64,000 bases of DNA, taken from the NCBI GenBank assembly GCA_030827135.1, contig JAURFE010000001.1:430368-494367 (forward strand). Direction: 5' to 3'. A program made the translations under genes and the position numbers. Under the pieces are notes generated by a model, which saw only the letters and a list, made by a program, of their open reading frames with translations, made no database searches and was not told the DNA's origin. Of this stretch, positions 6,901-60,344 are shown one piece after another (within the stretch, counting starts at the first letter, position 1; each line of letters opens with the position of its first letter). Source of the DNA: Vicinamibacterales bacterium. Lineage in GTDB: Bacteria > Acidobacteriota > Vicinamibacteria > Vicinamibacterales > SCN-69-37.

Positions 6901-7691
6901 GTAGACACGGCGCGGCCATCGGCCCCCTTGCCGGTCGGCGTCACACCCGCGACCGCCCCCGCGACCTGCGGCGCCGGTTGCTGCGTGGTGATGCGGCACA
7001 CTTTGGCGCCGGCGCGCGGCACGTCCACGGCCATCCACGGCTTGTCGAGGAAGGCCGCCCCCGTCGAACTGGCCACGATCGATGTGGAGACGTACGCGAT
7101 CGGGTCGCCGTTCTCCTTGTTGTTGTTGTCCACAAACCGCGACACGAAAATCGCGCTCGCGCCACCTTCGCCGCGGTTAAACGCCAGACCCGCGTAATAC
7201 AGCAGACCGTTGGTGCCGGGCCGCACGACCGGGTCCGCACCGGCGTGATACGCCTTCAGCGGAGACGCCATGCCTTCCGCGGAGGTGTCCTGCGGATAGC
7301 CGGGCAGGAGCGTGCTCTGCCACCGTTCGCCGCCGTCAAATGACTTGAAGACGCCGAGCCACGCGTCGCCCGTCTCCCCGTCGTCGAAGTTACCGGGGAT
7401 GTCCACAGTCCGGTAATCGTTGGCGCCAGCCAGCAGGTGCAGCGGGTTGCGCGTCGAGGCTGCCACCGACGGCTCATTCTGACGCTGCAGATACGGGTCG
7501 CCGTTGGGCAATGTCTGCCCCGACACCATATTCACGTTGCGACCGACGACCAGGTCCAATCCGGGGTCCGCCACCTGAGCCGATGGCCACACGGCCCCGA
7601 GCACCAGGGCACCGCCTAGCGCGACAAGACCGGCCAAGGAACGTACGCGGGTGCCTGAAGGCTGAACACTTCGGCGTCTGTTTTGTGACAT
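966..7691 (-). CDS. Giant secreted multidomain protein (BNR/Asp-box propeller, Ig-like/CARDB-like modules, NPDIS pentapeptide array, parallel beta-helix, IPT/TIG-like C-terminus)
   Basis: One uninterrupted ORF. The preferred start is the ATG at 7691, preceded by AAGGA 8 nt upstream (the ORF-track start at 7730 is a GTG with no SD). The N-terminus is a basic region followed by the hydrophobic stretch LAGLVALGGALVLGAVW, i.e. a signal peptide. Asp-box motifs SFDGGERW and SADCGATW are present. A long run of beta-helix-like repeats follows (GIxI, NxIxGN). Other landmarks are a DGDGGPNNRQNFPVL motif, TATATDGNGNTSEFSQC and two Ig-like terminal modules. Confidence 0.85.
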   Translation of the reverse strand: MSQNRRRSVQPSGTRVRSLAGLVALGGALVLGAVWPSAQVADPGLDLVVGRNVNMVSGQTLPNGDPYLQRQNEPSVAASTRNPLHLLAGANDYRTVDIPGNFDDGETGDAWLGVFKSFDGGERWQSTLLPGYPQDTSAEGMASPLKAYHAGADPVVRPGTNGLLYYAGLAFNRGEGGASAIFVSRFVDNNNKENGDPIAYVSTSIVASSTGAAFLDKPWMAVDVPRAGAKVCRITTQQPAPQVAGAVAGVTPTGKGADGRAVSTAAQTITETRTAKGTPTVLPTPGIAKTISQQVLAGAMYVAYAQITTTTLATGASDIESRIMFSRSADCGATWTTPVQISDPAHKVNQGATIAVDPSTGAVHVAWRQFGLTATAPDAIMTVSPDISAKVAKKPVKVHEFKPGPKADAIQPKLQRAHRHGDVHQLVSIRPFDSGTGEDRFRTNAYPTIAIDDESRVYLAWTERGYAGARSDPLIGDARVVLATSKIPGVWTTPRAVDSKPDGTDLPGHQMMPSMSYSGGRLLIVYYDLRQDVSRVFGPFVSERDAIAVADRRHTIDVRAVQAPKGDVPVFGASTMVSQYLIGNLRGAAGASAQQLQFNAPNLPLFQLGTVPFMGDYIDVAPAPAFVQNAGGTWIHNTANTSAPVFHAVWTDNRDVQKPKDGNWQNYTPPGGIGCADGQTGMRNQNVYSARITMGLIAGSPGNTKPLSTDTPRGFVVFAQNLTYQTKAYRLTIENQPVGGSASFNQLGLATPEPLLLSVDVKVAPRSMVTRTVYATSTNAKEQVRVSVTEVGLADFLPISGGLATTVILNPDISNPDISNPDISNPDISNPDISNPDISNAEVYNPDISNPDISNPDISNPDISNPDISNPDISNVRIANPDISNPDISNPDISNPDISNPDISNPDISNPDISNGSLTDVTWTIRNDGNTTASFNVNLFIANQAATAGGIKTQLVVHKTYKTPVSDGCVLKSQTQTVLVANVLNPTFLTAGDDTTFDPANPDISNTTLWLEPGGEGKITLRIVDPNPTDNIGINPVTDVTPVIQSLAVNTPDLNDPMPNPPATPLPTDPPAPPSPTTTVLSFVTQPANTLAGGPIPDVVVRAVTGGNPAPGVQVTIAIAINPSGGKLDGVVTVLTDAAGLATFGGLSIDRDGAGYRLSASAAAAQAMPILSDAFGVGAVVPPPPPPAAWSATGDGIVALVDNGLVSGTPRMTYQRNGIPNFNGAWSLSSVAGGAGAVRLDWEWTGFHSYCLSTVQLQSFVNRGGLDVFTAPLVQYADTCVGLNNPSAGFAFAGVTSVVVQPGDTYGFRLAGSHYDSTYALEGTFTAVVNGATDPSPFVVTNASDGGPGSLRAAVIAANAAADLNTITFAIPGAWVHHIAPATPLPVISNPVIIDGLSQPGTVSMAPMINLDGRFMLNLVSNNNDDQPGTNLGLAPGFEVAASDVTIRGLGINRFPGPGVYVNNGTNNVRVEDNAIGAGRVGVMTWPANNVGVQLNYSTNHVIARNVISSSQTSGILIVGGSGTLITGNRIGMSADGLTAMPNLDNGITLYDGATATIIDGNLISGNGTVGQPNGYGIDIQQSGGLADVTNTVITNNIIGLDASGNLISRGGPNWLGPGAVVNGGPVNRGNTGGGIRVVRGTGTIIGNDTASGNTVSGNTGAGIHITGPVGAAVRVLGNRIGTNAAGTAERGNRRGIEVVGSSAVIGEPGEGKENVISGNLGDGIFANGNTTIENNLVGVNAAGNAALGNAWMPQGGTPEIGCCMTGLFVDAPNNIVRDNVVGGSSTHSQSPGIRSGGTLGEAPNVITGNFVGITRSLAGAVANGIGIGLYGDQSGTRVERNTIAHNITAGVWLVEGTVGATVGGTAVNGNLIRNNGIGIQVGYNAAAGDVRNQLLSNRIYSNSSLAIDLGADFITVNDAGDGDGGPNNRQNFPVLSNVSNAGVATTFNYTLDSLQINALHTIQVFANSVCDVSGNGEGERLVGSFQQISDGAGDMVVVGAVLNELVPAGQFLTATATDGNGNTSEFSQCVQVVSGATINSATPANGAANDGFMVLQGTNLPATPGDVVAEVTNGVATANGFWFGGPSSATAGYVRLPAMPLGAATVRLRNNAGTVVTNAFPITITAVPGTPQITAIRDGSLNVVAAPVAAGSTIYVGAYGTDTTGAVVRFTQGATTWDVGAGVALSNGVIGLIVQVNVPGGAAPGPIDVRIRQGASAFSAPVTIQVAAPPSGSSVPPLTR
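4950..5264 (-). repeat. 21 x 15-bp in-frame tandem repeat encoding (NPDIS)6-NAEVY-(NPDIS)6-NVRIA-(NPDIS)7
   Basis: Read directly from the sequence: units such as ggaaatgtcgggatt, cgagatatccgggtt and cgaaatatccggatt on the plus strand. Copies differ mostly at synonymous positions. A solitary NPDIS copy lies at 4688-4702. Confidence 0.95.
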
Positions 7692-20918: not shown

Positions 20919-22655
20919 CTACATCACTTCCAACGACACGCGCACAGGCACCTGCTGCCCGGCCCGCACCACCACGGTGGTGGTCATGCTCTTGTGGCCC
21001 GCGAGATCGAGCCGAATCGTATGCGACCCCGGCGCCACATCCGGCACACGCATCGGCGTGGTGCCCATGAGGCGGCCATCAATTGTGACCTGTGCGCCTG
21101 ACGGACGGGTATCGATGTACAGCGATCCGGTGGACGCGGCAGGCGCCAGGGGGGCGGCGCGCCGCAGCTCCACGGTGATATCCCGCGCCGGCACGGTCCG
21201 GGAGAGGGTGACCCGCGCGATGCGCGGCCGGTAGCCTTCGCGCGACACCGTGACGTTGTATGTGCCAAACGGCAGGTCCCGCACGGTCGCGGGCGTCGTC
21301 CCGCGCGCGCGGCCGCTAATCATCACACGAGCTCCTGCGGGCACCGACCGCACCAGCAACCGGCCGCGCGTGGCCGACGGCTCGGCCTGGGCCACCTCGC
21401 CTGAAGGCGTCGTCTCTGCCGGCACCGTCGGGGGTTCGGTCACGGCTACGTCAGTGCCGACCGGAACGTCACCGACGACAGCCGCCGTTTCGAGCGCATC
21501 TGGCGCGCTGCCGGACGGGCCGCGCCACACATAACCGAGGGCCGCGCCGATGAGCACGCCGACGACGAAAAACGCCGCGGCGATCCCGCTTGAGAACGGC
21601 AGCGCGGGCGGGGGCACCGTGGGGCCCGCTGGGATTGAGCGCGCCACCGCAGGTCGTGTGGGCGCCGGAGGGCGCGCCGGGGTTGGGCGTGCCACGGAAG
21701 GTGATGTGGGTGACGTGGGCGCGCCCGCAGCAGGGCGCGCTGGGGTTGAGGGCGCCACGTCAACAGCCGGTGGAGCAGGAGGCGTGGGTGGGGTCGGCAC
21801 CGCCACAACTTCCACAACCTCTTTTGTGACCGAAGGCAACTTCTCCGTCTCAAGTGCCGCAAGAAACTCCGAGGGTGTGGCGTACCGGTTCGCGGGATCC
21901 TCGGCCAACACGCACGCGAGCGCGGCGCGAATCGCGACGCGCTGCGCGGGAGTCGTGCCTGTCGGCAGCGTCCAGTCCTGCTCCCCTGTGCCCGCCGGCC
22001 GTCGACCGGTCAGCAATTCGTGGGCGAGCACGCCAAACGAGTACACGTCCGCCCGGATGTCCCACGGGCGACCGGCCACACGTTCCGGTGCGGTGTAGGG
22101 TCGGCGCACCGGCGCCGTGATCCCAAGCGCCTCAAGTGCGGGCACCACGCCAAAGCCGGTGACGCGCACCTGGTTGGTGTCGCTGACAAACACGTCACGC
22201 GGATGCAACGCGCCGTGCCCCAGGCCCGCAGCCCATCCGGCCTCGATGGCCTCCGCGACCTGACGCAATATCGGTCGCGCGCGATCGATCGGTGCCGGTG
22301 CCAGTCGGCGCAGCGCCGCATCGAAGGTCTCGGAGGTGTCGTACTCGGATCCAAGAAAAGCCGTCAGGCCTTCCAGCCCGGCCGCGACCGTGGGCACGAT
22401 GCAGGGCGACTCCACGCGGACGGCCGCGAGACGCCGGAGGGCCTCGGCAAGCCGAGTGGTGACTTCAGGCACAATGTCGAGGCGGAAGGCCTTGACGGCG
22501 ATCAGCCGTTCACGCTGGGGTTCATAGGCACGGAAAACAGGTCCCAGAGCGCCGCTGCCGATTTGATGCAGGACGCGAAATGTGCCGAAGGCGGGGGGCG
22601 CGGTGAACCCGGCGGAGTCGTCGTATAGCAGTGCAGAAACTCCTGAAACGATCAC
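20919..22655 (-). CDS. Membrane-spanning Ser/Thr-kinase-like protein (predicted pseudokinase) with two extracytoplasmic PEGA domains
   Basis: The G-loop GSGALGPV, the beta3 lysine (IAVKAF) and APE are retained. The catalytic loop reads HGALHPRD instead of HRDLKPxN, and DFG is GFG. A Pro-rich linker, one TM helix (AAFFVVGVLIGAALGYVW) and PEGA-like repeats (VRSVPAGARVMISGRARGTTP, IDTRPSGAQVTIDGRLMGTTP) follow. Confidence 0.85.
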   Translation of the reverse strand: MIVSGVSALLYDDSAGFTAPPAFGTFRVLHQIGSGALGPVFRAYEPQRERLIAVKAFRLDIVPEVTTRLAEALRRLAAVRVESPCIVPTVAAGLEGLTAFLGSEYDTSETFDAALRRLAPAPIDRARPILRQVAEAIEAGWAAGLGHGALHPRDVFVSDTNQVRVTGFGVVPALEALGITAPVRRPYTAPERVAGRPWDIRADVYSFGVLAHELLTGRRPAGTGEQDWTLPTGTTPAQRVAIRAALACVLAEDPANRYATPSEFLAALETEKLPSVTKEVVEVVAVPTPPTPPAPPAVDVAPSTPARPAAGAPTSPTSPSVARPTPARPPAPTRPAVARSIPAGPTVPPPALPFSSGIAAAFFVVGVLIGAALGYVWRGPSGSAPDALETAAVVGDVPVGTDVAVTEPPTVPAETTPSGEVAQAEPSATRGRLLVRSVPAGARVMISGRARGTTPATVRDLPFGTYNVTVSREGYRPRIARVTLSRTVPARDITVELRRAAPLAPAASTGSLYIDTRPSGAQVTIDGRLMGTTPMRVPDVAPGSHTIRLDLAGHKSMTTTVVVRAGQQVPVRVSLEVM

Positions 22656-22711
22656 AGTACTTTACCACGCGGCCGAACCGTCTCCCTAGCCTCTGTAGTA
22701 AATTGACGGGC

Positions 22712-24370
22712 GTGCCCGCCCATCCCGACGTCCCTGCCAGCACCATCATTCGTGACGCGATCGACCTGAGGCGGTTTCCGTGGATTCGCCCGCTCGTGTC
22801 GGCGTATTCGACGGACTTTTCGAGCGTCGCCGGCCTGTTCAGCGGCAATCCGGCGGATCCGGCCGCGTGGACGCAGACCCTGGCGCGCGTGCAGCAGAGC
22901 CCGCGTGACCGCGCGGGTCTCGCCAGACTGCTCGGCGCGCAACTCGAACGTCGCGGCGCCCCGGCTCATGCGCGCGCCGCGGCGACACGACTCGCCGATC
23001 GCGAGACGGTCGCGATCGTCACAGGCCAGCAGGCCGGTCTTTTTGGCGGGCCACTGTATACGCTGCTCAAAGCGGTGACGGCGATTCGCCTCGCCCGCAA
23101 GGTCTCCGCGCGCCACGGCATTGCGGCGATTCCTGTGTTCTGGGTCGAGGCGGAAGACCACGACTGGGAAGAAGTGCGCACCTGCCGCGTGCTCGACGCC
23201 GAGCTCGCCCTGCACGAGATCTCGCTCGACTCACTCGAGGGGGCCGGCACACGCCCCGTGTCCTCGCTGGTGATCGACGACGGCATCGGCGATGCGCTCG
23301 GTGCACTCGAACAGGCGCTCCCCGCCACGGAATTCAGAGACGACGTCATGGCGCGCCTTCGCGCGCACTACCGCCCCGGCCAGCGGATGGGCACCGCGTT
23401 TGCGGCGTGGCTGGATGATCTGCTCGGTCGCTACGGCCTGGTCGTCTTCGAAGCGGCGGACCCCGCGGCCAAGCCCCTCGTCGCGTCCCTCTTCGCCAAG
23501 GAACTGGATACGCCGTGTCGCACGACCCATTTCGCCAAGACGACCGGCGACACGATGCGACACCTCGGCCACGAACCCCAGGTCGAACCCGGGGACGACA
23601 GCGTGGCCCTCTTCTACATGGGCGGCGGCGATCGCGTCTCCATCAAGCGGCGCGACAACGGCTACGCGATTGGTGATGTCGTCCGGCCGCTGGCCGACGT
23701 GCAGCAGGAAGCCGCCGAACATCCCGAGCGCTTCAGTCCCAACGTGCTGCTCCGCCCGCTCGTGCAGGACCGGCTTTTCCCGACCGTCTGTTACGTGGCC
23801 GGCCCCAGCGAACTCGCGTATCAGGCGCAGCTCGGCGCCATCTACCAGGACTTCGGCGTCGAAATGCCGCTGCTGTACCCGCGCGCGAACGCGACGCTGC
23901 TCGACTCAGCGGCCGTCCGGTTCCTCGAGAAATATCAGCTGCCGTTCGAATCCCTGCAGCCCCACGACGAGGCCGCCCTCAATCGCCTTCTTCAGAGCCA
24001 GCTCCCGCCAGGCCTCGAGGACGGCTTTGTGGCGACGGCCGACGACGTGCGCGCGCGTATTGAGGCGTTGAAGGTCGCCATCGCGTCAGTCGACCCGACC
24101 CTCGCCGGCGCCGCCGACACCACCGTCGAGCGCATGCAGGACACACTCAGGCACCTGCATGCGAAGGTCATCTCGGCCAGCAAACGCAAGGACGACACCC
24201 TCCGCCGCCAGTTCACGCGTACGCAGGCGCTCGCCTTCCCCGAAGGTCATCCACAGGAGCGCATCGTGGATCTCGCGTTTTTCCTGAACCGCTACGGCCA
24301 GGCGCTCTGCGAGCGGTTGATCGAGGGCTTGCCCCTCGACATGGGCAAGCACTTCCTCGTCACGCCATGA
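22712..24370 (+). CDS. bshC: Bacillithiol biosynthesis cysteine-adding enzyme BshC
   Basis: TGQQAGLFGGPLYTLLK and VFWVEAEDHDWEEV match the BshC (YllA) signature region. About 550 aa. The start could be the GTG at 22712 or the TTG at 22703. Confidence 0.85.
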   Translation: MPAHPDVPASTIIRDAIDLRRFPWIRPLVSAYSTDFSSVAGLFSGNPADPAAWTQTLARVQQSPRDRAGLARLLGAQLERRGAPAHARAAATRLADRETVAIVTGQQAGLFGGPLYTLLKAVTAIRLARKVSARHGIAAIPVFWVEAEDHDWEEVRTCRVLDAELALHEISLDSLEGAGTRPVSSLVIDDGIGDALGALEQALPATEFRDDVMARLRAHYRPGQRMGTAFAAWLDDLLGRYGLVVFEAADPAAKPLVASLFAKELDTPCRTTHFAKTTGDTMRHLGHEPQVEPGDDSVALFYMGGGDRVSIKRRDNGYAIGDVVRPLADVQQEAAEHPERFSPNVLLRPLVQDRLFPTVCYVAGPSELAYQAQLGAIYQDFGVEMPLLYPRANATLLDSAAVRFLEKYQLPFESLQPHDEAALNRLLQSQLPPGLEDGFVATADDVRARIEALKVAIASVDPTLAGAADTTVERMQDTLRHLHAKVISASKRKDDTLRRQFTRTQALAFPEGHPQERIVDLAFFLNRYGQALCERLIEGLPLDMGKHFLVTP

Positions 24371-24371
24371 A

Positions 24372-24462
24372 GGAATGAGGCGATGGAATTGCGCTAATTC
24401 CTGAATGGGTGAATGCCATGACCTCGATAACGGCCATTGCATTATCGCCCCATTGCCTCATT
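24372..24462. repeat. Nested inverted repeats filling a convergent intergenic gap
   Basis: Outer arms aatgaggcgatgg (24374-24386) and ccattgcctcatt (24450-24462) match at 12 of 13 positions. The inner perfect hairpin is ggaatt-gcgct-aattcc (24385-24401). The right arm overlaps the stop codon of the ArgH-like gene. Confidence 0.6.
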
Positions 24463-25918
24463 ACCCCATTGACATCGAAGCCGCCTTCAGGCCGCTCTCA
24501 GCGCCCAGCAGGCGCGCGCGTGTTGAGGCGATCCAGCCGGCGTCTTCGGCGAGGCGTGCGCGTGAGTCTGCGATCGCGGCACCGGTGATCTCCGGCGCGG
24601 GGCCGCCGTGTGTGCGGCGAATGGCCACGAAGTGTTCGGGGCTCAGGAGTTCGGCAAGTTCGGCCTCCGTGTACTCGATGGCCGTGCCGGTGACCTCGCG
24701 GGAAATCTCGGCGACGATCGTCGAGAGCGGCGCGTCGGGCCGTTCCTGGCGGCCGCGCACCAGGCGGGCGGCGATGGTGTGCCCGGCCTTGAATGGCAGC
24801 CCACGCTCGCGCGCGAGGGTGTCGGCCAGTTCCGTGACCGAGATCCAGTTTTCGCCGGCGCGCGTGCGCATCTTGTCGACATCCACATCGGCGCCGTCGA
24901 GCGCCACGGCCACGAGTGATACCGCACGGATGGCGTCCTTGAACATCGCGGCCACAAGCGGCTGCAGGTCGTCCTCGGTGTCCACAATGTCGCCGAACGG
25001 CGTGTTGTGCACCGCGACAGGAATGGCACCCGCTTGTGCAAAGGCCTTCGACGCGAGGGCGCGCGCATGCTCCAGCGCGACGGGATTGCGCTTCTGCGGC
25101 ATGATGCTGCTGACCTGCACAAACCCGTCGGTCAGCCGGAGGTAGCCGAACTCCATCGTGCACCAGAGCAGCAGATCCTGCACCAGCCGGCCGACGCCGA
25201 CCAGCGTGACGCTCGCCGCCGCCGCACTCTCCAGCAGATAGTCCACCGTCGCGATGCTGCCGTAGGTGTTGCCGGTCGGACCGTCGAATCCCAGCAGCAC
25301 GCTCGTCCGATCGCGATCGATCGGAAACCCGGTGCCGGTGATGGCGCAGGCGCCGAGCGGATTCTGATTGACGCACGCGTACGCCGCCTTGAGCCGTGTG
25401 CCGTCGCGCTCCAGTTGCTCGATGGCGCCCAGCAGATAGTGGGCCACCGTGGACGGCTGCGCGGGTTGCGTGTGCGTGTGCGCGGGAAACACGGTGTGCC
25501 GGTGGCGCGACGCCAGATCGAGCAGCGATCGGCGCAGCTGCACCGTCGCCTCGGCGAGCTTGAGCACAAACGCCCTGATGCACATCCGATACATCGTCAT
25601 GTCGATATCGTTGCGGCTGCGCGCGGTGTGCAGGCGCCCGGCGACGTCGGCGCCACACGCGGCCACCACCTGGCGTTCGAGATAGAAGAACAGGTCTTCG
25701 TACGACCCGTCGTAGGTCGCGGCGCGCACGGCCGCGAGATCGATGCCGTCGAGCGCGCGTCTGATTGTGCGCGCATCCTCGAGCGACACAATGCCGGTCT
25801 CACGCAGCATGCAGAGATGCGCGTAGTGGATGGCCATCAGCGGATCGAGGAACAACGCTTTCGCGTCCTCGAAGTTCTCGTTCAGGACGAGACGGACATA
25901 GTCGGGAGAAAACGGCAT
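24461..25918 (-). CDS. Argininosuccinate-lyase-family (fumarase/aspartase superfamily) protein, ArgH paralogue
   Basis: TARSRNDIDMT and SSIMPQKRNPVALE signature motifs are present. The N-terminus lacks the usual ArgH WGGRF segment. Confidence 0.8.
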   Translation of the reverse strand: MPFSPDYVRLVLNENFEDAKALFLDPLMAIHYAHLCMLRETGIVSLEDARTIRRALDGIDLAAVRAATYDGSYEDLFFYLERQVVAACGADVAGRLHTARSRNDIDMTMYRMCIRAFVLKLAEATVQLRRSLLDLASRHRHTVFPAHTHTQPAQPSTVAHYLLGAIEQLERDGTRLKAAYACVNQNPLGACAITGTGFPIDRDRTSVLLGFDGPTGNTYGSIATVDYLLESAAAASVTLVGVGRLVQDLLLWCTMEFGYLRLTDGFVQVSSIMPQKRNPVALEHARALASKAFAQAGAIPVAVHNTPFGDIVDTEDDLQPLVAAMFKDAIRAVSLVAVALDGADVDVDKMRTRAGENWISVTELADTLARERGLPFKAGHTIAARLVRGRQERPDAPLSTIVAEISREVTGTAIEYTEAELAELLSPEHFVAIRRTHGGPAPEITGAAIADSRARLAEDAGWIASTRARLLGAESGLKAASMSMG

Positions 25919-25934
25919 GCGGTCCTTTGCACAG

Positions 25935-33677: not shown

Positions 33678-34509
33678 GTCCCGCCCGGAACGCATGTACC
33701 CCGGTCTCGACGTCTCGGGATTCGGCGACCCCGATTTCGTGCTGGCCGCAGTGGACGACTGGTCCCCCACCGCCGTCGACGACTCCGGGGCCGCGCTCCG
33801 CATCTTCTTCAGCACGACGGAGGAGCGGCACGATGCCGAGGCGCACCTCCGCGCGGCAATGCCGCATCTGGTGTGTGCGGCGATTGACGTCCCCGACGAA
33901 CACTGGGCCGAACGAAGCCAGGCCGCGCTGACGGCCGTGCGCGTGGGCGCGCTCAGTGTCGCGCCGCCCTGGGACATCCCCACCGATGGGTCGCAGGTCA
34001 TCGTGATTCTGCCGTCGATGGGGTTCGGCACCGGTCATCACGCCTCGACGCGTTTATGCCTCGGTCTCCTGCAGGCCGGGGATCACGCGGGCCGCCGCGT
34101 GTGTGACGTCGGGACCGGATCCGGCGTGCTGGCCATCGCCGCGCTCCGCCTCGGCGCCGCCAGCGCCGTCGCCGTGGACTACGACATGGACGCGATCGTC
34201 TGTGCGCGAGAATCCGCCGAACTCAACCACATCACGTCCGGCCTCGACATCCGCCAGGTCGACCTCGACGTGGACGGGACGGTCGCCGGCGGACCGTTCG
34301 ATCTGGTCCTCGCGAACCTCACGGGCGGTCTGCTCATTCGCCTTGTGGACCGGCTCGTCGCCATGACTCTGCGCGGCGGTGCCCTCATCCTCAGCGGCAT
34401 CACGACCGCCGAGGCAGACGATGTCATCGCGGCGTTCGAGGGAGCCGGGTGTCAGATTCTCGAACGTCGCGACGAAGACGGCTGGGTGGGGTTGCGGCTG
34501 GGCTGGTGA
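33670..34509 (+). CDS. prmA: Ribosomal protein L11 methyltransferase
   Basis: SAM motif [28 protein letters not shown], and its position after dnaJ. The start could be the TTG at 33670 or the ATG at 33694. Confidence 0.85.
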
Positions 34510-34548
34510 GCGGATGGGCGGTTGGGCGGTTGACGGAGCACAAGGGCC

Positions 34549-35094
34549 TCAGCCCGTGTGACACAACTGCCTGGCGACAAATTCCACCACGTCCGGCAAT
34601 TGCCCATCCGTGAAGTGCCCGCGGTTCCTGAACTCAAAGTAGGAACACTTCAGCTGCGCCGCCACGTGGCGCGGCTCCGCGATCGGAATGTGAGGATCGT
34701 CAGTGGAGTTGAAGACTCCGATCCACTGCTGGTTGTCACGAATGGCTGACCAGCACCACGGGTCCCGGTAGTAGCCGCTCTGGGCTTCGAACGAGTCTCC
34801 CAGATCGGTATGACAGACACCCACGAGCACAGATCCCAGGAGGCGATGGGTCTCGGCATACCGCATGGCCGCCACCGCGCCTGACGAGTGACCAATCAGG
34901 ATGGTCCGTTCGTCGGCCCCCAGTGACTCCAGGAATGGCAGCCAATACGAGGCGCGCGCTTTCACGCTGTCGGGAAACTCGGTGTTGATGACGTCGAGAC
35001 CCAGGGCGGCGAGGCCCCGCTCGACGAACGGATACCAGGCGTCGCCCGGACTGCACCCGCCGTTGCCGGGGATCAGAATGGCCCTGGTGGCCAT
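34549..35094 (-). CDS. RBBP9/YdeN-like serine hydrolase (alpha/beta fold)
   Basis: 181 aa with ILIPGNGG and the nucleophile elbow GHSSG. The ATG at 35094 overlaps the rsmE stop (ATGA). The longer ORF-track version runs over rsmE and is rejected. Confidence 0.75.
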   Translation of the reverse strand: MATRAILIPGNGGCSPGDAWYPFVERGLAALGLDVINTEFPDSVKARASYWLPFLESLGADERTILIGHSSGAVAAMRYAETHRLLGSVLVGVCHTDLGDSFEAQSGYYRDPWCWSAIRDNQQWIGVFNSTDDPHIPIAEPRHVAAQLKCSYFEFRNRGHFTDGQLPDVVEFVARQLCHTG

Positions 35095-35843
35095 CACGTC
35101 CAGCCCCAGGCCGCCCACAGGAGGGTCAGGGCCACAGCGGGAGCGGACTCGGCCCGCAGGGTGCGCGGACCAAGCGACACGGTGTGCGCGCCTCGTTCCG
35201 TGAACATCGCGAGTTCCTCGCCGCTCCAGCCACCCTCCGGTCCGATCAGCAGCAGCGCCGCCGAGGGCCGTGCGGCCGTCCGCCAGTCGCGCGCCGTCCC
35301 CCCCTGCATCGCCGCCGGTTCGACACACGCCAGCGTCAAGTTCGCCGCATCCGGCGCGTCCGCCGTCGGCCACAGGCCGACGAGCGGGGTCACCGGGGCG
35401 ATGGTGGGGACGACGGCGCGACCACACTGCTTGGCGGCGGCGACGGCGACACGGTGCCAACGGGCCTGTCCACGATTGTCGCGCCAGGTCTTCGACGGCA
35501 CCGCGACGTGGTCGGTCACGACCGGCCTGATGGCCGTCACGCCCATCACCGTCGCGTCGCGTACGACGGCGTCCATCTGGTCGCCCTTAAGCAGGCCGAC
35601 CGCCAGCGTGACCCTCACCGCCGGTTCCGGAACCGGACTCACCTCCCGCTCGACGATCAGCGAAACCGACGACTTCGTGATCGCGCCGACCTGTGTACGC
35701 CATTCACGCCCGCGCCCGTCAAACACGCCAACGGAATCGCCCGCGCGTACGCGGAGGACACGCGTCAGATGATGCGCCTCATCGCCCACCACCTCGACAA
35801 CAAGCGTCTCAACCTGGACGTCGGGCACATACACGCGCGTCAT
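35094..35843 (-). CDS. rsmE: 16S rRNA (uracil1498-N3)-methyltransferase
   Basis: MTRVYVP...GDEAHHLTRVLRVRAGD N-terminus and a C-terminal LLIGPEGGWS knot motif. Confidence 0.9.
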   Translation of the reverse strand: MTRVYVPDVQVETLVVEVVGDEAHHLTRVLRVRAGDSVGVFDGRGREWRTQVGAITKSSVSLIVEREVSPVPEPAVRVTLAVGLLKGDQMDAVVRDATVMGVTAIRPVVTDHVAVPSKTWRDNRGQARWHRVAVAAAKQCGRAVVPTIAPVTPLVGLWPTADAPDAANLTLACVEPAAMQGGTARDWRTAARPSAALLLIGPEGGWSGEELAMFTERGAHTVSLGPRTLRAESAPAVALTLLWAAWGWT

Positions 35844-35847
35844 GCCG

Positions 35848-35915
35848 CCCAATCCCCGCTCCTCAATCCCTCAATCCAAATCCTCAATCCTCAATCCTCA
35901 ATCCTCAATCCTCAA
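35848..35915 (+). repeat. Heptamer array A: degenerate units, then CCAAAT, then (CCTCAAT)x5
   Basis: Five perfect TCCTCAA units at 35881-35915, preceded by cccaatc, cctcaat, ccctcaat and ccaaat. The plus strand is almost free of G. The array sits in the rsmE/kinase divergent gap and ends 8 nt before a TGaTATTCT extended -10-like box. Confidence 0.9.
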
Positions 35916-35938
35916 TGCCTCTGATATTCTCTCCGCAC

Positions 35939-36946
35939 ATGGTGTTTCGCGGCCAGACCCTGGGCAAGTATCGAATCGTCGAGCCGCTTGGCAGTGGTGG
36001 GTTTGGCACCGTGTATCTGGCAGAAGATACCTGGATCGACAAGCGGGTGGCGCTGAAAGTGCCCCACCGCCAGAATCTGGACTTCGGCGAACTGCTCAAG
36101 GAACCGCGCCTGCTCGCGGCGCTTGGTCACCCCAACATCGTCACGGTTATCACGGCGGAGAAACAGGACAACGTCTTCTTCATCGTCATGGAATACGTGC
36201 CCGGTGAGACGCTTGAGACCCTGATTGTGCACAAGGGCGCGCTGGAGTTGATGCAGGCGCTCGATTACACGGCGCAGATCTGCAATGCCGTGGAACACGC
36301 GCACAAACACAACATCCTCCATCGCGATCTCCGCCCCGCGAACGTGTTCGTCACTGAGAAAGGGTTGGTCAAGGTCGGCGACTTCGGCACCTCGCGCGTG
36401 CTCGAACTCGCGGCCCATGGCACCACGGTCATCGGCAGTCCCCCGTACATGGCGCCTGAACAGTTCGAGGGCCGCGCGGTGTTTGCGTCCGACCTCTATT
36501 CCATCGGCGTGACGATGTATCAGATGCTGACGGGGACCCTGCCGTACGACACGCCGGCGCCTGCGGATCTCGTACGTCTCAAACGCGGCGAACTCGTGAC
36601 CCCGCCACGCGAACGCAACAGCAGCATTCCGAAGGTCATCGACGACATCGTCATGCGGGCACTCTCGCCGGATGTCGGCACACGGTATCAGCGCGCGGAG
36701 GAAATGCTGAACGACCTGCTCGCGGCCAGGCGCGACCTCGTTCGCAAGCCGCCGCCGCAGGTCGCCACCCCACCGGCACCGGCAGGAGCGGGCGCGGCCT
36801 CACGACCATCGCCGGCCCCGCGTCCGGCGCCAACCCCCACCCGCCTGCGACCCCCAGGCCCTCCCACCGCGCGATTTTGCTGGCAGTGTCGAAAACCGCT
36901 GCCCGCGCGAGGCACTCGCTGTCCATTCTGTGGCGAAGCCCAGTGA
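35939..36946 (+). CDS. Ser/Thr protein kinase with C-terminal zinc-ribbon
   Basis: GSGGFGTVY, ALKV, HRDLRPANV, DFGTSR and APE are all intact. A Pro-rich tail ends in CWQCRKPLPARGTRCPFCG. An alternative start is the ATG at 35915, formed by the last repeat unit. Confidence 0.9.
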   Translation: MVFRGQTLGKYRIVEPLGSGGFGTVYLAEDTWIDKRVALKVPHRQNLDFGELLKEPRLLAALGHPNIVTVITAEKQDNVFFIVMEYVPGETLETLIVHKGALELMQALDYTAQICNAVEHAHKHNILHRDLRPANVFVTEKGLVKVGDFGTSRVLELAAHGTTVIGSPPYMAPEQFEGRAVFASDLYSIGVTMYQMLTGTLPYDTPAPADLVRLKRGELVTPPRERNSSIPKVIDDIVMRALSPDVGTRYQRAEEMLNDLLAARRDLVRKPPPQVATPPAPAGAGAASRPSPAPRPAPTPTRLRPPGPPTARFCWQCRKPLPARGTRCPFCGEAQ

Positions 36947-39072: not shown

Positions 39073-39512
39073 CCCAGACCCGCGTGGCGGCGTTGCGGAT
39101 GCTGACGCGCCGCGAGTACACGGCATTCGAGCTCCGCGAAAAACTGCTCAAGAAGGAACATCCCCCCGACGACATCACGGCGGCACTGGAGAGCCTCGCG
39201 GCTGACCGGTTGCTCGACGACCGCCGCGTCGCGATAAGTTTTGTGCGCGTGGCTTCGTCGGTGAAAGGCCGCGGCCGGCTCCGCATTGCCCGGGAGCTCG
39301 AGGCCCGCGGCATCAGCAAATCAATCATCCGCGAGGCCCTCGACACACTCCCGGCCGAGGACGAGGTCGACTCGGTCCGCCGCTTTCTGGAGCGCAAGCG
39401 CCTCCCCCGTCACCTGCCGGCCGCCGACCACCGGCGCCTCTTTGCCCAGCTGCTGCGCCGGGGCTTCTCGGCCGACGTCATCGCCCGCGTCATCAAGGAC
39501 CGCCGTACGTAG
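39069..39512 (+). CDS. recX: Recombination regulator RecX
   Basis: ALRMLTRREYTAFELREKL, helical repeats, and its position immediately upstream of alaS. The GTG start overlaps the pilT stop. Confidence 0.85.
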   Translation: MTQTRVAALRMLTRREYTAFELREKLLKKEHPPDDITAALESLAADRLLDDRRVAISFVRVASSVKGRGRLRIARELEARGISKSIIREALDTLPAEDEVDSVRRFLERKRLPRHLPAADHRRLFAQLLRRGFSADVIARVIKDRRT

Positions 39513-39556
39513 GGCCCGCTGCCGTACGTAGGGCCCGCTGAACGTAGGGCCCGCTG
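39503..39556 (+). repeat. Tandem 19-bp duplication spanning the recX stop codon
   Basis: ccgtacgtagggcccgctg occurs at 39503-39521 and again, perfectly, at 39522-39540. A third partial copy, acgtagggcccgctg, is at 39542-39556. Confidence 0.95.
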
Positions 39557-39598
39557 AACTGTAGCGGGCCTGCGTCAGCCCGTTACAACCCAACGGGC
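39547..39598 (+). terminator. Two consecutive GC hairpins downstream of recX
   Basis: ggcccgct-gaactgt-agcgggcc (8 bp) and gcccgtt-acaaccc-aacgggc (7 bp). There is no U-tract, so intrinsic-terminator function is uncertain. Confidence 0.4.
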
Positions 39599-39631: not shown

Positions 39632-42320
<2,689 letters not shown>

Positions 42321-42325
<5 letters not shown>

Positions 42326-42354
42326 GGCAATTCCGTTATTCGAATTGCCTCATT
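42321..42354. terminator. Perfect 13-bp hairpin between convergent alaS and the pilin gene
   Basis: aatgaggcaattc (42321-42333), loop cgttattc, gaattgcctcatt (42342-42354). The left arm contains the alaS TGA. There is no U-tract on either side. Confidence 0.5.
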
Positions 42355-42355
42355 C

Positions 42356-42874
42356 TTAGGAATAAGGCGTAGCCGGCGGGCCGAAGGGTTCGGTCGGGGC
42401 GGCGGCTGCGGAAATCTGCCAGAGTGTCGCGCTCTGGTTGGTCGCGAAGGAGCGGCCACCCGTCGAACCAAACGTCTGCGGCACTGCGGTCGCGTAGTAG
42501 GCCGTTTGCGTCGCGGTGCCATTGCAGTCGTTTGGGCCGGCGGACGCACCGGCGCCGGGCGCCAACGCAAACTCGTAGCCGGCCTTGAAGGGCGTCGGCA
42601 GGTGGAATTCCGGCGAAATGAACGACTCGGTCTGCCCGGGAGGCGGCGTCGCGAGCACCGTAAACGACGGCGCAAAACCCTGGTTGCCGCAACTCGAGGA
42701 GTACGACACCTCAGCCACGTTGATGACGCGGAGCGACCCCGCCGCCGAGGATTCGTTCCCGGCCATCCGCGACCGCAACAGCCCCGGCACCGCAATCGCG
42801 GCAATGATGCTGATGATGGCCACGACAATCAGCAGCTCAATCAGCGTAAATCCGTCTTCGTGTTGCCTGGTCAT
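42356..42874 (-). CDS. Prepilin-type N-terminal cleavage/methylation domain protein (type IV pilin / pseudopilin-like)
   Basis: GFTLIELLIVVAIISIIAAIAVPGLL class-III signal, with GGAG 11 nt upstream of the ATG at 42874. Confidence 0.85.
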   Translation of the reverse strand: MTRQHEDGFTLIELLIVVAIISIIAAIAVPGLLRSRMAGNESSAAGSLRVINVAEVSYSSSCGNQGFAPSFTVLATPPPGQTESFISPEFHLPTPFKAGYEFALAPGAGASAGPNDCNGTATQTAYYATAVPQTFGSTGGRSFATNQSATLWQISAAAAPTEPFGPPATPYS

Positions 42875-55083: not shown

Positions 55084-56016
55084 TTAGTCTCGAAGTCCCG
55101 AAGTCCCGAGGACGTTGATGGTCGCCTCGATGCCTTCCCGCAGGGCATTGAGGTCGTAGCCGCCTTCCGTGACCACGGCGATCCGGCCGCCACAGAGGCG
55201 GCGGGCGGCGTCACCGAGCATCCCTGAGAGCCGGGCGAATCCCTCGGTTGTCATCCGAAGTCCACCGAGCGGGTCCTTGTAATGGGCGTCGTACCCCGCA
55301 GAGACCAGCACGATGTCAGGCTGGAACGCATCCAGGGCCGGCAGCGCCTGCGCCTCGTACGCCCCCAGCACGTCGTCATCGCCGGCGCCCGCACGCATCG
55401 GCAGGTTCAACGTGAACCCTTCACCCGCGCCTCTGCCACGCTCGGTCTCGGCCCCACTGCCGGGCCAGAACGGGTACTGGTGGCTGGAGATGAACAACAC
55501 GGACGGATCGCTGTCAAACGCCGCCTGGGTCCCGTTGCCGTGGTGGACGTCAAAGTCCACGATCGCGACCCGTGCCGCCCCCTCGGCTCTGAGTGCCGCC
55601 GCGGCCACAGCGACGTTGCCGTAAAAACAGAAGCCCATCGCCTTGTGGGGCTCGGCATGATGGCCCGGTGGACGCACAAGCGCCATCGCCGCTTCCCCGG
55701 TGGTCCATGCATGACGCGCGGCTTCGATCGTCGCGCCCGCCGCAAGCCGCGCCACGTCATACGTCTCCGGGCTCGTATACGTGTCGTCGTCAATCATCAC
55801 CGCGCGATCCGCCGTCGCCTCAATCGAATCGAGATACGCCGCGGTATGGATGCGCGCGAGTTCCTCGCGTGTCGCCATGCGCGGTTCGCGGACGATGCCG
55901 CCACGGGCCGCGAACGAGACCGCGACAGCCTCCAACACTTCGCCACGTTCGATGCGTTCCGGATGGCCGGGCGGAGGACAGTGTTCGGAGAATCTGGGGG
56001 AATACAGGAGGAGCAT
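55084..56016 (-). CDS. Histone-deacetylase-family amidohydrolase (AcuC/HDAC class)
   Basis: PPGHHAEPHKAMGFCFYGNVAVAA, DFDVHHGNGTQ and EGGY motifs. The ATG at 56016 lies 2 nt after the DUF374 stop. Confidence 0.9.
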   Translation of the reverse strand: MLLLYSPRFSEHCPPPGHPERIERGEVLEAVAVSFAARGGIVREPRMATREELARIHTAAYLDSIEATADRAVMIDDDTYTSPETYDVARLAAGATIEAARHAWTTGEAAMALVRPPGHHAEPHKAMGFCFYGNVAVAAAALRAEGAARVAIVDFDVHHGNGTQAAFDSDPSVLFISSHQYPFWPGSGAETERGRGAGEGFTLNLPMRAGAGDDDVLGAYEAQALPALDAFQPDIVLVSAGYDAHYKDPLGGLRMTTEGFARLSGMLGDAARRLCGGRIAVVTEGGYDLNALREGIEATINVLGTSGLRD

Positions 56017-56018
56017 CG

Positions 56019-56729
56019 TTATTGAGGATTGAGGATTGAGGATTGAGGATTTGGATTGGGGGATTGGGGATTGAGGGATTGTTCCAGGCTCCGCAAGGCC
56101 GCTTCCAACTCCAGCCGTCCCTGCTCCACCGTCGCCTCCTCGGTGTTCGCGATGTACAGCGGTTCGCCGATATTGATCGCAATCGTCGCGCCGGGTTTGG
56201 GGATCTGCTGGCGGTCCCAGCTGCGCGCGGTCCACGACGAATCCGCCTCAAGATGAAACGGCACAATCGGATGACCAGTCGCGCCGGCGAGCCACGCGGC
56301 ACCGGGCTGCGCGACGCGAGCGGGGCCGCGCGGGCCGTCGACCGTGAAGGCGACCGGCCGCCCTGCCGCCAACGTGCGACGCATCTGTACCAGCGCTTTC
56401 GCGCCACCACGCGACGAGGAGCCACGCGCCGCGCCGTAGCCGAACTTCGCAATGATGCGCGCGATCCATTCGCCGTCAAAATTTTCACTGGTGATGACGA
56501 CAATGCCGCGGTCACGGAAGTACGGCACACCTTCGAGAATGCGGCCGTGCCAGAAGGCCAGAATCGGCACCTCGCCAACACGTGTGAGCGCGTCCAGGTG
56601 GCCGGCTCCCGTGGCGCGATAGGTCCACGTGCCCGCAAGCGCCTCGATGATGGGCCAGCCGAGGGTGGCGATGGCCGACACCTGCGCCCGTTTCGCCCGG
56701 GACTCACGCCAGGCGGAATCTGCAGCCAT
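56019..56729 (-). CDS. DUF374 / lysophospholipid-acyltransferase-family protein
   Basis: PILAFWHGRILE...SENFDGEWIARI...VAFTVDGPRGP is the DUF374 core. The last 20 or so residues (SLNPQSPNPNPQSSILNPQ) are encoded by heptamer array B. Confidence 0.85.
   Translation of the reverse strand: MAADSAWRESRAKRAQVSAIATLGWPIIEALAGTWTYRATGAGHLDALTRVGEVPILAFWHGRILEGVPYFRDRGIVVITSENFDGEWIARIIAKFGYGAARGSSSRGGAKALVQMRRTLAAGRPVAFTVDGPRGPARVAQPGAAWLAGATGHPIVPFHLEADSSWTARSWDRQQIPKPGATIAINIGEPLYIANTEEATVEQGRLELEAALRSLEQSLNPQSPNPNPQSSILNPQ
56021..56081 (-). repeat. Heptamer array B: on the minus strand CAAT-CCCTCAAT-CCCCAATC-CCCCAAT-CCAAAT-(CCTCAAT)x4
   Basis: On the plus strand, (ATTGAGG)x4 at 56021-56048 followed by atttgg, attgggg, gattgggg, attgaggg and attg. 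It shares the CCAAAT-(CCTCAAT)n core with array A. The array ends 4 nt (aacg) before the HDAC ATG. Confidence 0.9.
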
Positions 56730-58582: not shown

Positions 58583-58588
58583 ATCATA
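58583..58588 (-). promoter_or_regulatory. Candidate -10 box (TATGAT) 6 nt upstream of the Fe-S oxidoreductase ATG
   Basis: The minus strand reads ctcgaTATGATtcctgcATG. No SD is present. Confidence 0.45.
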
Positions 58589-58600
58589 TCGAGAATCGTT

Positions 58601-58779
58601 GTTATTGAGGATTGAGGAGGGAGGATTGAGGATTGGCAATTGGGAGATTGCTGAATGGAGAGATTGATTGCAGGATTGCGGGGCCCAATCCCCCAATACC
58701 TCAATCAATCCCCCAATCCCCCAATTCCCCAATTGAGCAATTGCCAATCCTCAATCCTCCCTCCTCAATCCTCAATAAC
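58601..58779. repeat. Roughly 180-bp palindrome with perfect 42-bp arms built from heptamer words
   Basis: The left arm gttattgaggattgaggagggaggattgaggattggcaattg (58601-58642) is the exact reverse complement of 58738-58779. The 95-bp spacer is itself an imperfect palindrome centred near 58683-58686 (ggattgcggggcccaatcc). Confidence 0.95.
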
Positions 58780-58790
58780 GCGACAGTGAG

Positions 58791-58796
58791 TACAAT
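58791..58796 (+). promoter_or_regulatory. Candidate -10 box (TACAAT) 6 nt upstream of the pntA ATG
   Basis: gtgagTACAATgactccATG. No SD is present. Confidence 0.45.
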
Positions 58797-58802
58797 GACT
58801 CC

Positions 58803-60344
58803 ATGATCGTTGGCATCGCCAAAGAGGCCATCCCCGGGGAACGCCGCGTCGCAGCCACACCGGACTCTGTTACAAAACTTCAGTCACTCGGTTTCACAAC
58901 GCTTGTTGAATCGGGCGCCGGCCTCGCGGCCGGGTTTGCCGACGATGCCTATGTCACGGCGGGGGCGCGCATCGCGTCCACCGACGAGACCTGGGCGGCA
59001 CACGTCGTCGTCAAGGTCCGCCCGCCACAGGAGGCCGAGGTCGACCGGTTGAGTGCCGGCCAGACACTCATCAGTTACCTGTATCCCGCACAGAATGGGC
59101 CATTGGTAGAGCGGCTGATGGCGCGCGGCGTCACGGCTGTCGCCATGGACCAGGTGCCGCGGACCACCCGGGCGCAGAAGGTGGACGCCCTGTCCTCCAC
59201 CGGCAACCTGTCGGGATATCGCGCGGTGCTTGAGGCGGCCCACATGCTGCAGCGCCCGATGGGCGGCCAGACGACCGCAGCCGGCAAGATCCTGCCGTGC
59301 AAGGTGCTGGTGATTGGTGCCGGCGTGGCGGGGCTTGCCGCGATAGGCGCCGCCCGCGCGCTCGGCGCCATTGTTCGCGCCTTCGACACGCGTCCGGCCG
59401 TGAAGGAACAGGTCGCGTCGATGGGCGCCGAATTCCTGCAGGTGGAGATTGACGAGGACGGCACCGGGCAGGGCGGCTACGCCAAGGAAATGAGCCCCGC
59501 GTTCATTGCCGCCGAAATGGCCTTGTTCGCCGCGCAGGCCAAAGAGGTGGACGTCATCATCACCACCGCCCTGATCCCCGGCAAACGGGCGCCGGTGCTC
59601 ATCACCGCCGACATGGTGCGGTCGATGAAACGCGGGTCAGTCATCGTGGACCTTGCGGCGGAAATGCAGGGCAACTGTGAGTTGACGGCCCCTGGAGAGG
59701 CCGTGACCATCGACGGCGTCACCATCATCGGATACACGGACCTGCCCTCACGACTCGCCCTGCAGGCGTCGTCGCTCTACGCGCAGAACATTGTGCATTT
59801 GCTCGACGAGATGGGCGGCGCGGCCAGGTGCGGGATTGACGAGGCGAATGACATCGTGCGGCCGATGACGGTGGTCAAGGAGGGGGTGCTCTCCTGGCCT
59901 CCCCCTGCGGACGTGGCGCGCTCAACCCCAGCGCGCCCTACATCGCCCCCATCCGCCCAGCCGCGCCCAGCTGCCAAGCCGAGTAGCCACGGGGCCCCTG
60001 CGGGGAATACGTCGTGGACGGTCATTGGTGTGGTCGGAGTGGCGCTGCTTCTGATTGGCCTTGGCGCGCCGCAGAACTTCCTCACGCACCTCACGGTGTT
60101 TGTCCTCGCGTGCGTGATTGGCTACCAGGTCGTCTGGAGTGTGACGCCCGCGCTGCACACGCCGCTCATGAGCGTCACCAACGCCATCAGCGGCATCATC
60201 GTCATCGGGGGCATGTTGCAGATTGGTGGGGGCCTGACGTCCGCGGCCAGCATCATCGGCGCCATCGCCATCTTTCTGGCTGCCCTGAACATCTCCGGCG
60301 GCTTCCTCGTGACCCACCGCATGCTGAAGATGTTCCGCCGATGA
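58803..60344 (+). CDS. pntA: NAD(P) transhydrogenase subunit alpha (dI plus membrane dII-alpha part)
   Basis: MIVGIAKE...ERRVAATP, Rossmann motif [15 protein letters not shown] and C-terminal TM helices. About 513 aa. Confidence 0.95.

Follow-up and report, generated by a model that had tools for sequence, protein, structure and literature searches.

Labile CCTCAAT heptamer arrays beside leaderless promoters in a freshwater acidobacterium, a further member of a class of G-rich bacterial repeats

Tandem arrays of the heptamer CCTCAAT were examined in a stretch of 64,000 nucleotides (the window) from a Vicinamibacterales bacterium of the phylum Acidobacteriota (assembly GCA_030827135.1, contig JAURFE010000001.1, positions 430,368 to 494,367). 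There they occupy three loci, termed arrays A, B and C, which lie respectively between an rsmE-like gene and a Ser/Thr kinase gene, at the junction of a DUF374 gene with an HDAC gene, and between pntA and a gene for an Fe-S oxidoreductase. The GAGGATT/CCTCAAT tract, with its minor unit GGGGATT, is a further member of the class of G-rich heptamer repeats found in Xanthomonas and Nostoc. Judged from sequence, the arrays are labile and appear to be dispensable, and the conserved parts of the adjoining promoters lie outside them; the arrays are probably repeats that slippage drives and that are for the most part tolerated, with orientation-dependent selection shaping where they lie. A preliminary description of array A, drawn from the letters of the window alone, had treated the arrays as one dispersed family, which the present analysis supports, and had proposed a regulatory role for them, which, apart from its calls of -10 boxes, is not supported.

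Array A (35848–35916, plus strand) occupies most of the 95-nt spacer that separates the rsmE-like 16S rRNA methyltransferase gene (35094–35843, minus strand), whose ATG (35843) is some 6 nt away from the array's degenerate end, from the divergent kinase gene (35939–36946, plus strand; 335 amino acids, Pfam Pkinase). It consists of the degenerate units CCCAAT, CCCCGCT, CCTCAAT, CCCTCAAT and CCAAAT, followed by five perfect CCTCAAT copies at 35882–35916, the fifth of which ends one base beyond the coordinate first given for it. A base count of positions 35848–35915 (19 A, 32 C, 1 G and 16 T over 68 nt) bears out the description of the plus strand as almost free of G, and the own sense strand of the rsmE-like gene is accordingly the G-rich strand, reading (ATTGAGG)n. 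Across the window, (CCTCAAT)2 with at most two mismatches was matched 14 times, versus 0.22 expected from shuffles. On the kinase side, a -10-like box (TATTCT, 35925–35930, plus strand) begins 8 nt past the array and is followed by 8 nt and the ATG at 35939, an arrangement predicted to give a leaderless or near-leaderless transcript; the sequence TGATATTCT around this box is kept in relatives with and without arrays. The alternative ATG that had been pointed out at the array's end (35915–35917, the last unit plus G) does lie in frame with the ATG at 35939, and public gene calls start the kinase at 35939.

The length of array A varies among genomes that are otherwise nearly the same. The species of the window is present in many freshwater metagenomes, and array A was compared between the window and ten contigs (L171 to L180) that encode an identical kinase protein and are 99.6–99.96% identical to the window over about 7 kb. 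This comparison of copy number, which the preliminary description had proposed, gave four, five or six perfect units among the 11 sequences: four in L176, L178, L179 and L180; five in the window, L171, L173, L175 and L177; and six in L172 and L174. The rest of the spacer is unchanged in all 11, the differences being confined to the perfect run, so that no allele differs in the DNA between the -10 box and about -45. Array A is a hypermutable simple-sequence repeat that gains and loses whole units, and shows the whole-unit length polymorphism in near-identical genomes that marks slippage-prone repeats. About 1.4 kb away, at the junction of convergent prmA-like and hydrolase genes, the window carries a G-rich 8-mer array (GGGCGGTT and relatives, 34494–34532). 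It holds two copies of GGGCGGTT in the window, L172, L173 and L175, and three in L171, L174 and L176. Among the window and six contigs compared at array C, one variant with an extra 8-mer (L001) was found, and array B was identical in all seven sequences compared (the window and six contigs).

Array B (56021–56083, minus strand; CAATCCCTCAATCCCCAATCCCCCAATCCAAAT(CCTCAAT)4) contains the core CCAAAT(CCTCAAT)4, so that the recurrence of the CCAAAT-(CCTCAAT)n core near 56 kb is confirmed, and arrays A and B have in common the order CCCTCAAT...CCAAAT(CCTCAAT)n. It lies inside the 3' end of the DUF374 open reading frame (ORF), within an operon, and is read through as the C-terminal tail of the protein, of which it forms the final 18 codons (...LNPQSPNPNPQSSILNPQ); a change of a single unit would shift the frame of that tail. 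The DUF374 stop codon (TAA, 56019–56021) is made up of the last array unit plus AA, and is followed by CG and then by the HDAC ATG (56016–56014), which agrees with the earlier statement that the array ends 4 nt (AACG) before that ATG. Array B and its orthologues always terminate in CCTCAATAAC(G/A)ATG or CACTAACATG, immediately before the HDAC start.

Array C (58601–58779), where related array words had likewise been reported, is a palindrome of about 180 nt in which a G-rich arm (58602–58683) precedes a C-rich arm (58684–58779). Complementarity between the arms is perfect over their outer ~42 bp, with degenerate units further in (CCCCCAAT, TCCCCAAT); folding of either strand predicts a near-perfect hairpin of -121 to -128 kcal/mol (z about -13). 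The palindrome stands between the -10 boxes of two divergent leaderless genes, namely TATGAT (58583–58588, minus strand), then 6 nt and the ATG at 58576 of the Fe-S/CCG oxidoreductase gene, and TACAAT (58791–58796, plus strand), then 6 nt and the ATG at 58803 of pntA. The former box recurs with the same spacing in the related sequences L125 and L127, and the latter box recurs in L125 to L128. Units of the types GGGGATT and GGGGGATT occur in all three arrays, the main unit of the G strand being GAGGATT.

Leaderless genes appear to be common in this genome. Genes were called with a simple codon-usage gene finder, whose calls agree with public gene calls, and among the 28 genes having their own upstream region, eight carry TANNNT 5–9 nt before the start, versus about 0.005 expected per gene; starts at 7801, 44610 (minus strand), 46921, 55074 (minus strand), 58576 (minus strand), 58803 and 61847 exemplify this layout. 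Shine-Dalgarno motifs are almost absent, and many genes therefore look leaderless. The -10-like hexamers called earlier fit the same layout (TATTCT plus 8 nt, TACAAT plus 6 nt and TATGAT plus 6 nt to the ATG), and it holds that no canonical -35 element is visible at these promoters. The arrays had been said to end 8–12 nt before the -10 box, which is true of array A (8 nt) but not of the two sides of array C, where the distances from the last CCTCAAT are 14 and 15 nt (12–13 nt if the terminal TAA is counted within the array); with distances of 8, 14 and 15 nt, no heptad phase is kept.

Comparison of the same junctions in related species shows turnover, with arrays appearing, changing unit and vanishing. 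The rsmE|kinase spacer, 95 nt long with its array in the window, measures 83 nt in L181 (mixed CCTCACT, CCCCAAT and CCTCAAT units), 65 nt in L182 (a different array), and 41 and 44 nt in L183 and L184, which have no array; in all five alike, TGATATT(C/G)T is kept, followed by 8–12 nt and the kinase ATG. At the pntA|Fe-S spacer, the closest relative, L125, has 37 nt, no array and -10 boxes back to back 13 nt apart; L126 has one array, (GGATGGA)8(GGATGGG)4; L128 has only a degenerate array; and in L127 the arms remain beside pntA and the Fe-S gene, with a gene of 656 amino acids inserted between them. In DUF374|HDAC relatives of 65–90% identity, the array-encoded tails differ in unit and length (...SILNPQ, ...SILHPPSSI..HPQ, ...NHQSPITNHK). 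In relatives without a tail, DUF374 ends in LE(Q/A)SLK, and the L128 junction is TAAATG without an array, reading GCGTAAATG; the tail-less CA(A/G)TC(C/G)CT(C/A)AA already looks like about one and a half units, a likeness that suggests an array born locally. Together, these junctions and the length alleles form a natural deletion series, in which the same leaderless promoters occur without an array, with different arrays, and with four, five or six units, and which speaks against a need for the arrays in promoter function.

The relative L125 comes from the same metagenome as the L050 metagenome-assembled genome (MAG), and these and a further Lake Tanganyika MAG (L039) are labelled Acidimicrobiia. 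L125 has the gene order of the window, including lptE, and its proteins are 74–89% identical to those of the window. That label is borne by one relative of 89% identity; the presence of LptE speaks for a cell with two membranes and so against it, and the Acidimicrobiia label of the protein records that match L125 is probably wrong. Homologues, by the names that their sources give them, indicate Vicinamibacterales in the Acidobacteriota.

Beyond the window, (CCTCAAT)3 was found in more than 118 stretches of the genome collection, versus about 0.3 expected by our own estimate. The hosts are mostly Acidobacteriota (many of them Thermoanaerobaculia) and Betaproteobacteria, with Bacteroidota, Planctomycetota, cyanobacteria and further groups also represented. 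That CCTCAAT is a special motif shared across phyla was rejected, because in viral contigs the triplets of three composition-matched control heptamers were comparably frequent (5, 2 and 26 loci, versus 9 for CCTCAAT), counts which indicate that exact heptamer triplets are generally far above chance. Two practical consequences follow for sequence records: such arrays lengthen annotated ORFs, as in the DUF374 tail, and metagenome assemblies break at them, several matches being located at contig ends.

The layout of the family was analyzed in 114 arrays from other genomes that do not lie at locus edges and that have at least three perfect units each, shorter arrays being thus unseen. An array was regarded as paired when a G-rich arm (at most 4 mismatches in 21) lay within 130 nt of it. 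Such an arm stands upstream of 51 of the 114 arrays and downstream of only one, an order that array C has also, and 63 of the 114 arrays counted as single. The loops differ in sequence and length at every site. Hairpins lie between co-directional genes in 27 cases, convergent genes in 7 and divergent genes in 1; in the co-directional hairpins of the top-strand set, the median distance is 6 nt from stop codon to G arm, and 25 nt from C arm to start codon. Single arrays between co-directional genes have the C-rich strand as sense in 14 cases and the G-rich strand in 11, and one single array lies between divergent genes. Divergent spacers thus hold 2 of the 66 arrays whose context could be classified, to which arrays A and C of the window are exceptions. 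Median gaps on the ORF-proximal side are 6–25 nt for hairpins and 12–36 nt for single arrays, whose far side is 72–129 nt away, and 19 of the 114 arrays lie inside predicted ORFs. As a common rule, an ORF boundary lies near the point where the C strand has its 3' end and the G strand its 5' end. When units that match at 6 or more of 7 positions are counted, 29 arrays have three units, 39 have four, 17 have five and 3 have six, with a mode at four.

Two expectations of the preliminary description can be set beside this layout. It had stated that the C-rich strand is the sense strand of the gene immediately downstream, which is true in the window, where all four arms face the adjacent gene, but is not a rule among the 114 outside arrays; and it had held that random location and orientation genome-wide would speak against it, of which the location proved non-random and the orientation independent of the downstream gene. 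Directional growth of arrays, suggested by the window, where perfect units are gene-proximal and degenerate units distal, was rejected as a general rule (28 to 24 in single arrays, and 8 to 20, in the opposite sense, in hairpins).

Individual sites outside the window offer some further observations. In L088 (a Sideroxydans MAG, ~3197–3224), (CCTCAAT)3 stands, in frame, between a hairpin-loop ATG and the conserved RILGIDPG residues that start a RuvC-like gene; this leaves two possibilities, an N-terminal extension translated from the array or a non-standard start codon for the gene. In L080 and L115 (Burkholderiales/Betaproteobacteria MAGs), a hairpin of G-arm and C-arm heptamers lies directly upstream of a serC-like gene (MSRVFNFSAGPA...), and this common position indicates that array positions can be common to species outside Acidobacteriota too. 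A full-text literature search for the array sequence returned nothing relevant.

The class to which these arrays belong was described by Rehm et al. (2015, PLoS One; PMC4692102), who found the repeats GGGAATC of Xanthomonas and GGGGA(C/T)T of Nostoc PCC 7120 to be mostly intergenic, to form 70–75 convergent inverted pairs per genome, to lie nearer to the ORF 5' of the repeat whatever that ORF's orientation, to be scarce between divergent ORFs, and to be about equally frequent on both strands between aligned ORFs. In the same study, related species had repeats at the same junctions with differing length, no link to surface genes or mobile elements was seen, and no function was found. The CCTCAAT family corresponds to this class in having a unit of 7 nt whose head is G-rich and whose tail is A/T (GGGGATT, the minor unit, being identical to that of Nostoc), in its dispersed and mostly intergenic occurrence, in the preference for four units and the many convergent inverted pairs, in its closeness to an ORF on the 5' side of the G strand, its rarity between divergent ORFs and its indifference to strand between co-directional genes, in often occupying the same junctions in related species with other length and sequence, and in having no tie to surface genes or mobile elements. 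It differs in that its main unit, GAGGATT, is one base from GGGGATT and has an interrupted G tract; in its host, a freshwater acidobacterium; and in that divergent genes flank two of the three loci here, where the arrays directly precede leaderless -10 boxes, and one array is translated. The perfect unit carries GG only and lacks the four G3 tracts of the quadruplex-forming Rehm repeats, and a regular-expression scan of arrays A, B and C for canonical G-quadruplex motifs (G3+, loops of at most 7 nt) found none, with one candidate in array C having a 15-nt loop. What is new here is that arrays without canonical quadruplex motifs obey the same layout, and that a unit without quadruplex potential should still follow the published positional rules weakens the quadruplex explanation of those rules.

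The heptanucleotide STRR (short tandemly repeated repetitive) sequences of cyanobacteria have units that include CCCCA(A/G)T and others. In a survey (Mrazek et al. 2007, as summarised in PMC4679880 and PMC4692102), heptamers were the commonest class of long simple-sequence repeats with units of 5–11 nt, were attributed to slippage rather than function, and were over-represented in large, often G+C-rich genomes of non-pathogens. The summarised accounts of that survey and of the cyanobacterial STRR surveys do not describe the CCTCAAT unit or Acidobacteriota.

Taken together with this precedent, the favored explanation is that replication slippage would create and resize the arrays, which would have no required role in the adjoining promoters and would persist where they do little harm. 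In many genes of this genome the -10 box lies 6–8 nt before the ATG, so that divergent genes would have no free DNA between them except upstream of their -10 boxes; arrays A and C sit there, and would for this reason look like promoter elements. Array B would be tolerated at its operon junction, where it prolongs the upstream ORF without introducing a G or a stop codon. The layout of the family may likewise reflect an orientation-dependent tolerance: the G strand contains TGA in all three frames, together with GAGG/UUG pseudo-starts, and would therefore do harm if placed immediately before a start, though none immediately after a stop codon, and the C strand, with no stop codon, start codon or G, would be harmless before a start. 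The 5' end of the G strand would then come to lie near an ORF, giving the observed pairs of G arm, loop and C arm. The inverted pairs receive a simple account in these terms, as two independent arrays, each beside its own ORF, with a unique loop that would be the remnant of the original spacer.

Several observations weigh against this explanation. In many species the DUF374|HDAC junction retains an array, and since the short intergenic regions suggest a deletion bias, such persistence hints at selection or at continual regrowth. The four-unit peak and the 51:1 excess of the G-first order are not predicted by slippage alone, and the tolerance argument that would account for them is a proposal. 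The presence of one unit at several junctions, and the common order of arrays A and B, fit poorly with independent births, for which gene conversion would be needed, and two of the three loci of the window lie between divergent genes, a position seldom occupied by the family. Not explained in this way, and leaving room for a function, are the four-unit peak, the 51:1 order and the recurrence of the same unit at several junctions. As the GAGGATT arrays follow their layout despite having no G3 tracts, it is possible, though on balance unlikely, that the cause is not quadruplexes but a process common to phyla, in which heptad arrays at transcription-unit borders would be read, for instance, by a conserved protein or by a function in RNA decay or termination.

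A somewhat less likely proposition is that the arrays work by way of the structure of their nucleic acid, with G-first hairpins (as DNA cruciforms or RNA stems), G-quadruplexes or i-motifs marking where transcription units end, as terminators, insulators or stabilizers of 3' ends; in array C, such a structure would separate divergent promoters that would otherwise overlap. Consistent with this, 34 of the 35 classifiable hairpins lie just downstream of at least one stop codon, at a median of 6 nt in the co-directional top-strand set, and their stems are very stable, with a mean of about -62 kcal/mol for ~120 nt that array C exceeds. The HDAC|LeuRS junction has a hairpin in several relatives, each of a different sequence, the four-unit mode is that of quadruplex-forming repeats, and the 13 nt that separate the -10 boxes of L125 are so few that extra spacing could relieve competition between the promoters. 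Against it stand the 63 single arrays, the close relatives without arrays, the missing canonical quadruplex motifs of arrays A, B and C, and the lack of a U-tract after the stems; for the same reason (no T-run after the C arm), an intrinsic terminator was rejected. When the sense and antisense RNA folds of the 27 co-directional hairpins were compared, moreover, they divided 14 to 13 (Wilcoxon p = 0.74), and this equal stability gives no sign of selection on one RNA strand.

The three length alleles of array A, which coexist in near-clonal genomes from different lakes, raise the question of a contingency or tuning locus, in which slippage would lengthen or shorten the 5' leader of rsmE, or move the divergent genes closer together or further apart, and so vary expression in the population. 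If rsmE were transcribed from the palindromic TGATATTC region, the whole array would form its 5' leader, (AUUGAGG)n, with GAGG/UUG signals. Heptanucleotide repeats in promoter regions of Haemophilus influenzae (7-bp units upstream of hmw1A and hmw2A) are reported to cause phase variation, and array A is similar to them in its unit length, its position upstream of a start and its variable copy number in natural populations. The arrays described here, in contrast, have no surface or virulence link, do not lie between the promoter elements of the gene that they face, and occur at many housekeeping junctions, the neighbors in the window being rsmE, the Ser/Thr kinase, pntA, the Fe-S oxidoreductase and HDAC. 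The core promoter of the kinase, constant from -10 to about -45, is unaffected by copy number; the unrelated 8-mer array between convergent genes is equally polymorphic, so that variability is a general property of the repeats here; and the findings of Rehm et al. (PMC4692102) were likewise negative for their class. A tuning locus is accordingly improbable.

Very improbable is the reading advanced in the preliminary description, that the array is a cis-element upstream of the promoter which replaces the -35 box, or offers phased sites for cooperative binding of an activator or repressor. Arrays A and C do lie directly upstream of good -10 boxes that lack a visible -35, and two helical turns correspond to three heptads. 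Ribbon-helix-helix dimers are known to bind arrays of heptad operators (the omega repressor binds 7-bp operators), and a heptad geometry is present here too. According to a preprint on Nostoc, deletion of a heptamer array altered the action of NtcA and LexA on the recO promoter and left basal activity unchanged. Relatives, however, keep the same promoters, with the same -10 box and start, in the absence of any array, which would argue against a requirement of the omega type; the distance from array to box varies; L126 has another unit, in the opposite orientation, at the pntA|Fe-S spacer; the copy-number alleles share an unchanged proximal ~45 bp; array B lies inside an ORF; and the family is located mostly after stop codons and seldom between divergent genes. 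Mimicry of a -35 element was rejected in particular, the hexamers at that position being unlike between promoters (TCCTCA, ATCCTC) because the register of the array differs.

Equally doubtful is the idea, most relevant to array B, that a G-free array on the sense strand serves as an unstructured leader that promotes initiation independent of a Shine-Dalgarno motif. MacGregor (2015; PMC4679880) proposed such a role for the TAACTGA heptamer, which forms direct repeats just upstream of starts without Shine-Dalgarno motifs in marine Beggiatoaceae, cyanobacteria and Bacteroidetes. The two families have in common dispersed arrays of two to six units, many of them a few nt before such starts, and the occurrence of the same unit in distant phyla without a visible mechanism of transfer. 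The scarcity of Shine-Dalgarno motifs in this genome, the constant position, immediately ahead of the HDAC start, of array B and its orthologues, and a (CCUCAAU)n strand that reads without G, start or stop codon would all suit the idea. The TAACTGA unit, however, has stop codons on the sense strand and occurs nearly always as forward direct repeats upstream of starts (with one inverted case), whereas about 45% of the CCTCAAT arrays form inverted pairs, in which the G arm would sequester the leader, and many follow stop codons. Array B ends 4 nt from an ATG without a Shine-Dalgarno motif, but L128 has only TAAATG at that junction; arrays A and C lie upstream of -10 boxes and would thus be absent from the mRNA of the gene that they face; and in other genomes the distance from C-sense array to start is broad (7–195 nt).

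A mobile element was rejected, the loops being unique to each site, so that the arrays are not copies of one element, and no target-site duplication being present (L125 compared with the window and L127); similar neighboring copies were seen in L064 and L122, beside apparently tandem paralogous genes. The arrays recall repetitive extragenic palindromic (REP) sequences, bacterial interspersed mosaic elements (BIMEs) and MITEs (miniature inverted-repeat transposable elements) as short intergenic palindromes that mostly follow the 3' ends of genes and seldom separate divergent ones. They differ from these in having arms of tandem heptamers, which stay with the flanking genes when a gene is inserted between them (L127), and no associated transposase was seen, though transposases were not searched for.

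Other repeats were observed in the window and its relatives, where a scan of the window against Rfam found no family at gathering score. A related G-first hairpin of the 8-mer GAGGCAAT (42302–42360), composed of (TGAGGCAA)3, a loop and AATTGCCTCATT, overlaps the stop codon of an alaS-like gene of 897 amino acids, and its orthologue in L125 (19029–19093, at alaS) has other copy numbers, with ~2.5 and ~4 units in its arms. The octamer array (GGGACTTC)3 (55086–55113) encodes the last residues of HDAC, just before the TAAAAT box of leuS; at this HDAC|LeuRS junction, the differing hairpins are those of L125, L126 and L128, and L127 has a short junction only. Long arrays of the GGGACTTC octamer in inverted order (L127, 5892–5958 and 7969–8034) flank the gene that is inserted between pntA and the Fe-S gene. 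An imperfect G-first palindrome with units of the CCCCATT/CCTCATT type lies at 24370–24480, between convergent genes at 22631–24370 (plus strand) and 24464–25921 (minus strand). At 4947–5265, about 21 copies of a 15-nt unit (periodic also at 30 and 45 nt, with 75–77% matches) occur in an ORF of 2202 amino acids (969–7577, minus strand), where they presumably code for a repetitive segment of the protein. Between a recX-like gene and alaS (39502–39564), about three copies of a unit of 16–19 nt (GCCGTACGTAGGGCCCGCT) are found, part of which pairs with a downstream complement, GTAGCGGGCC.

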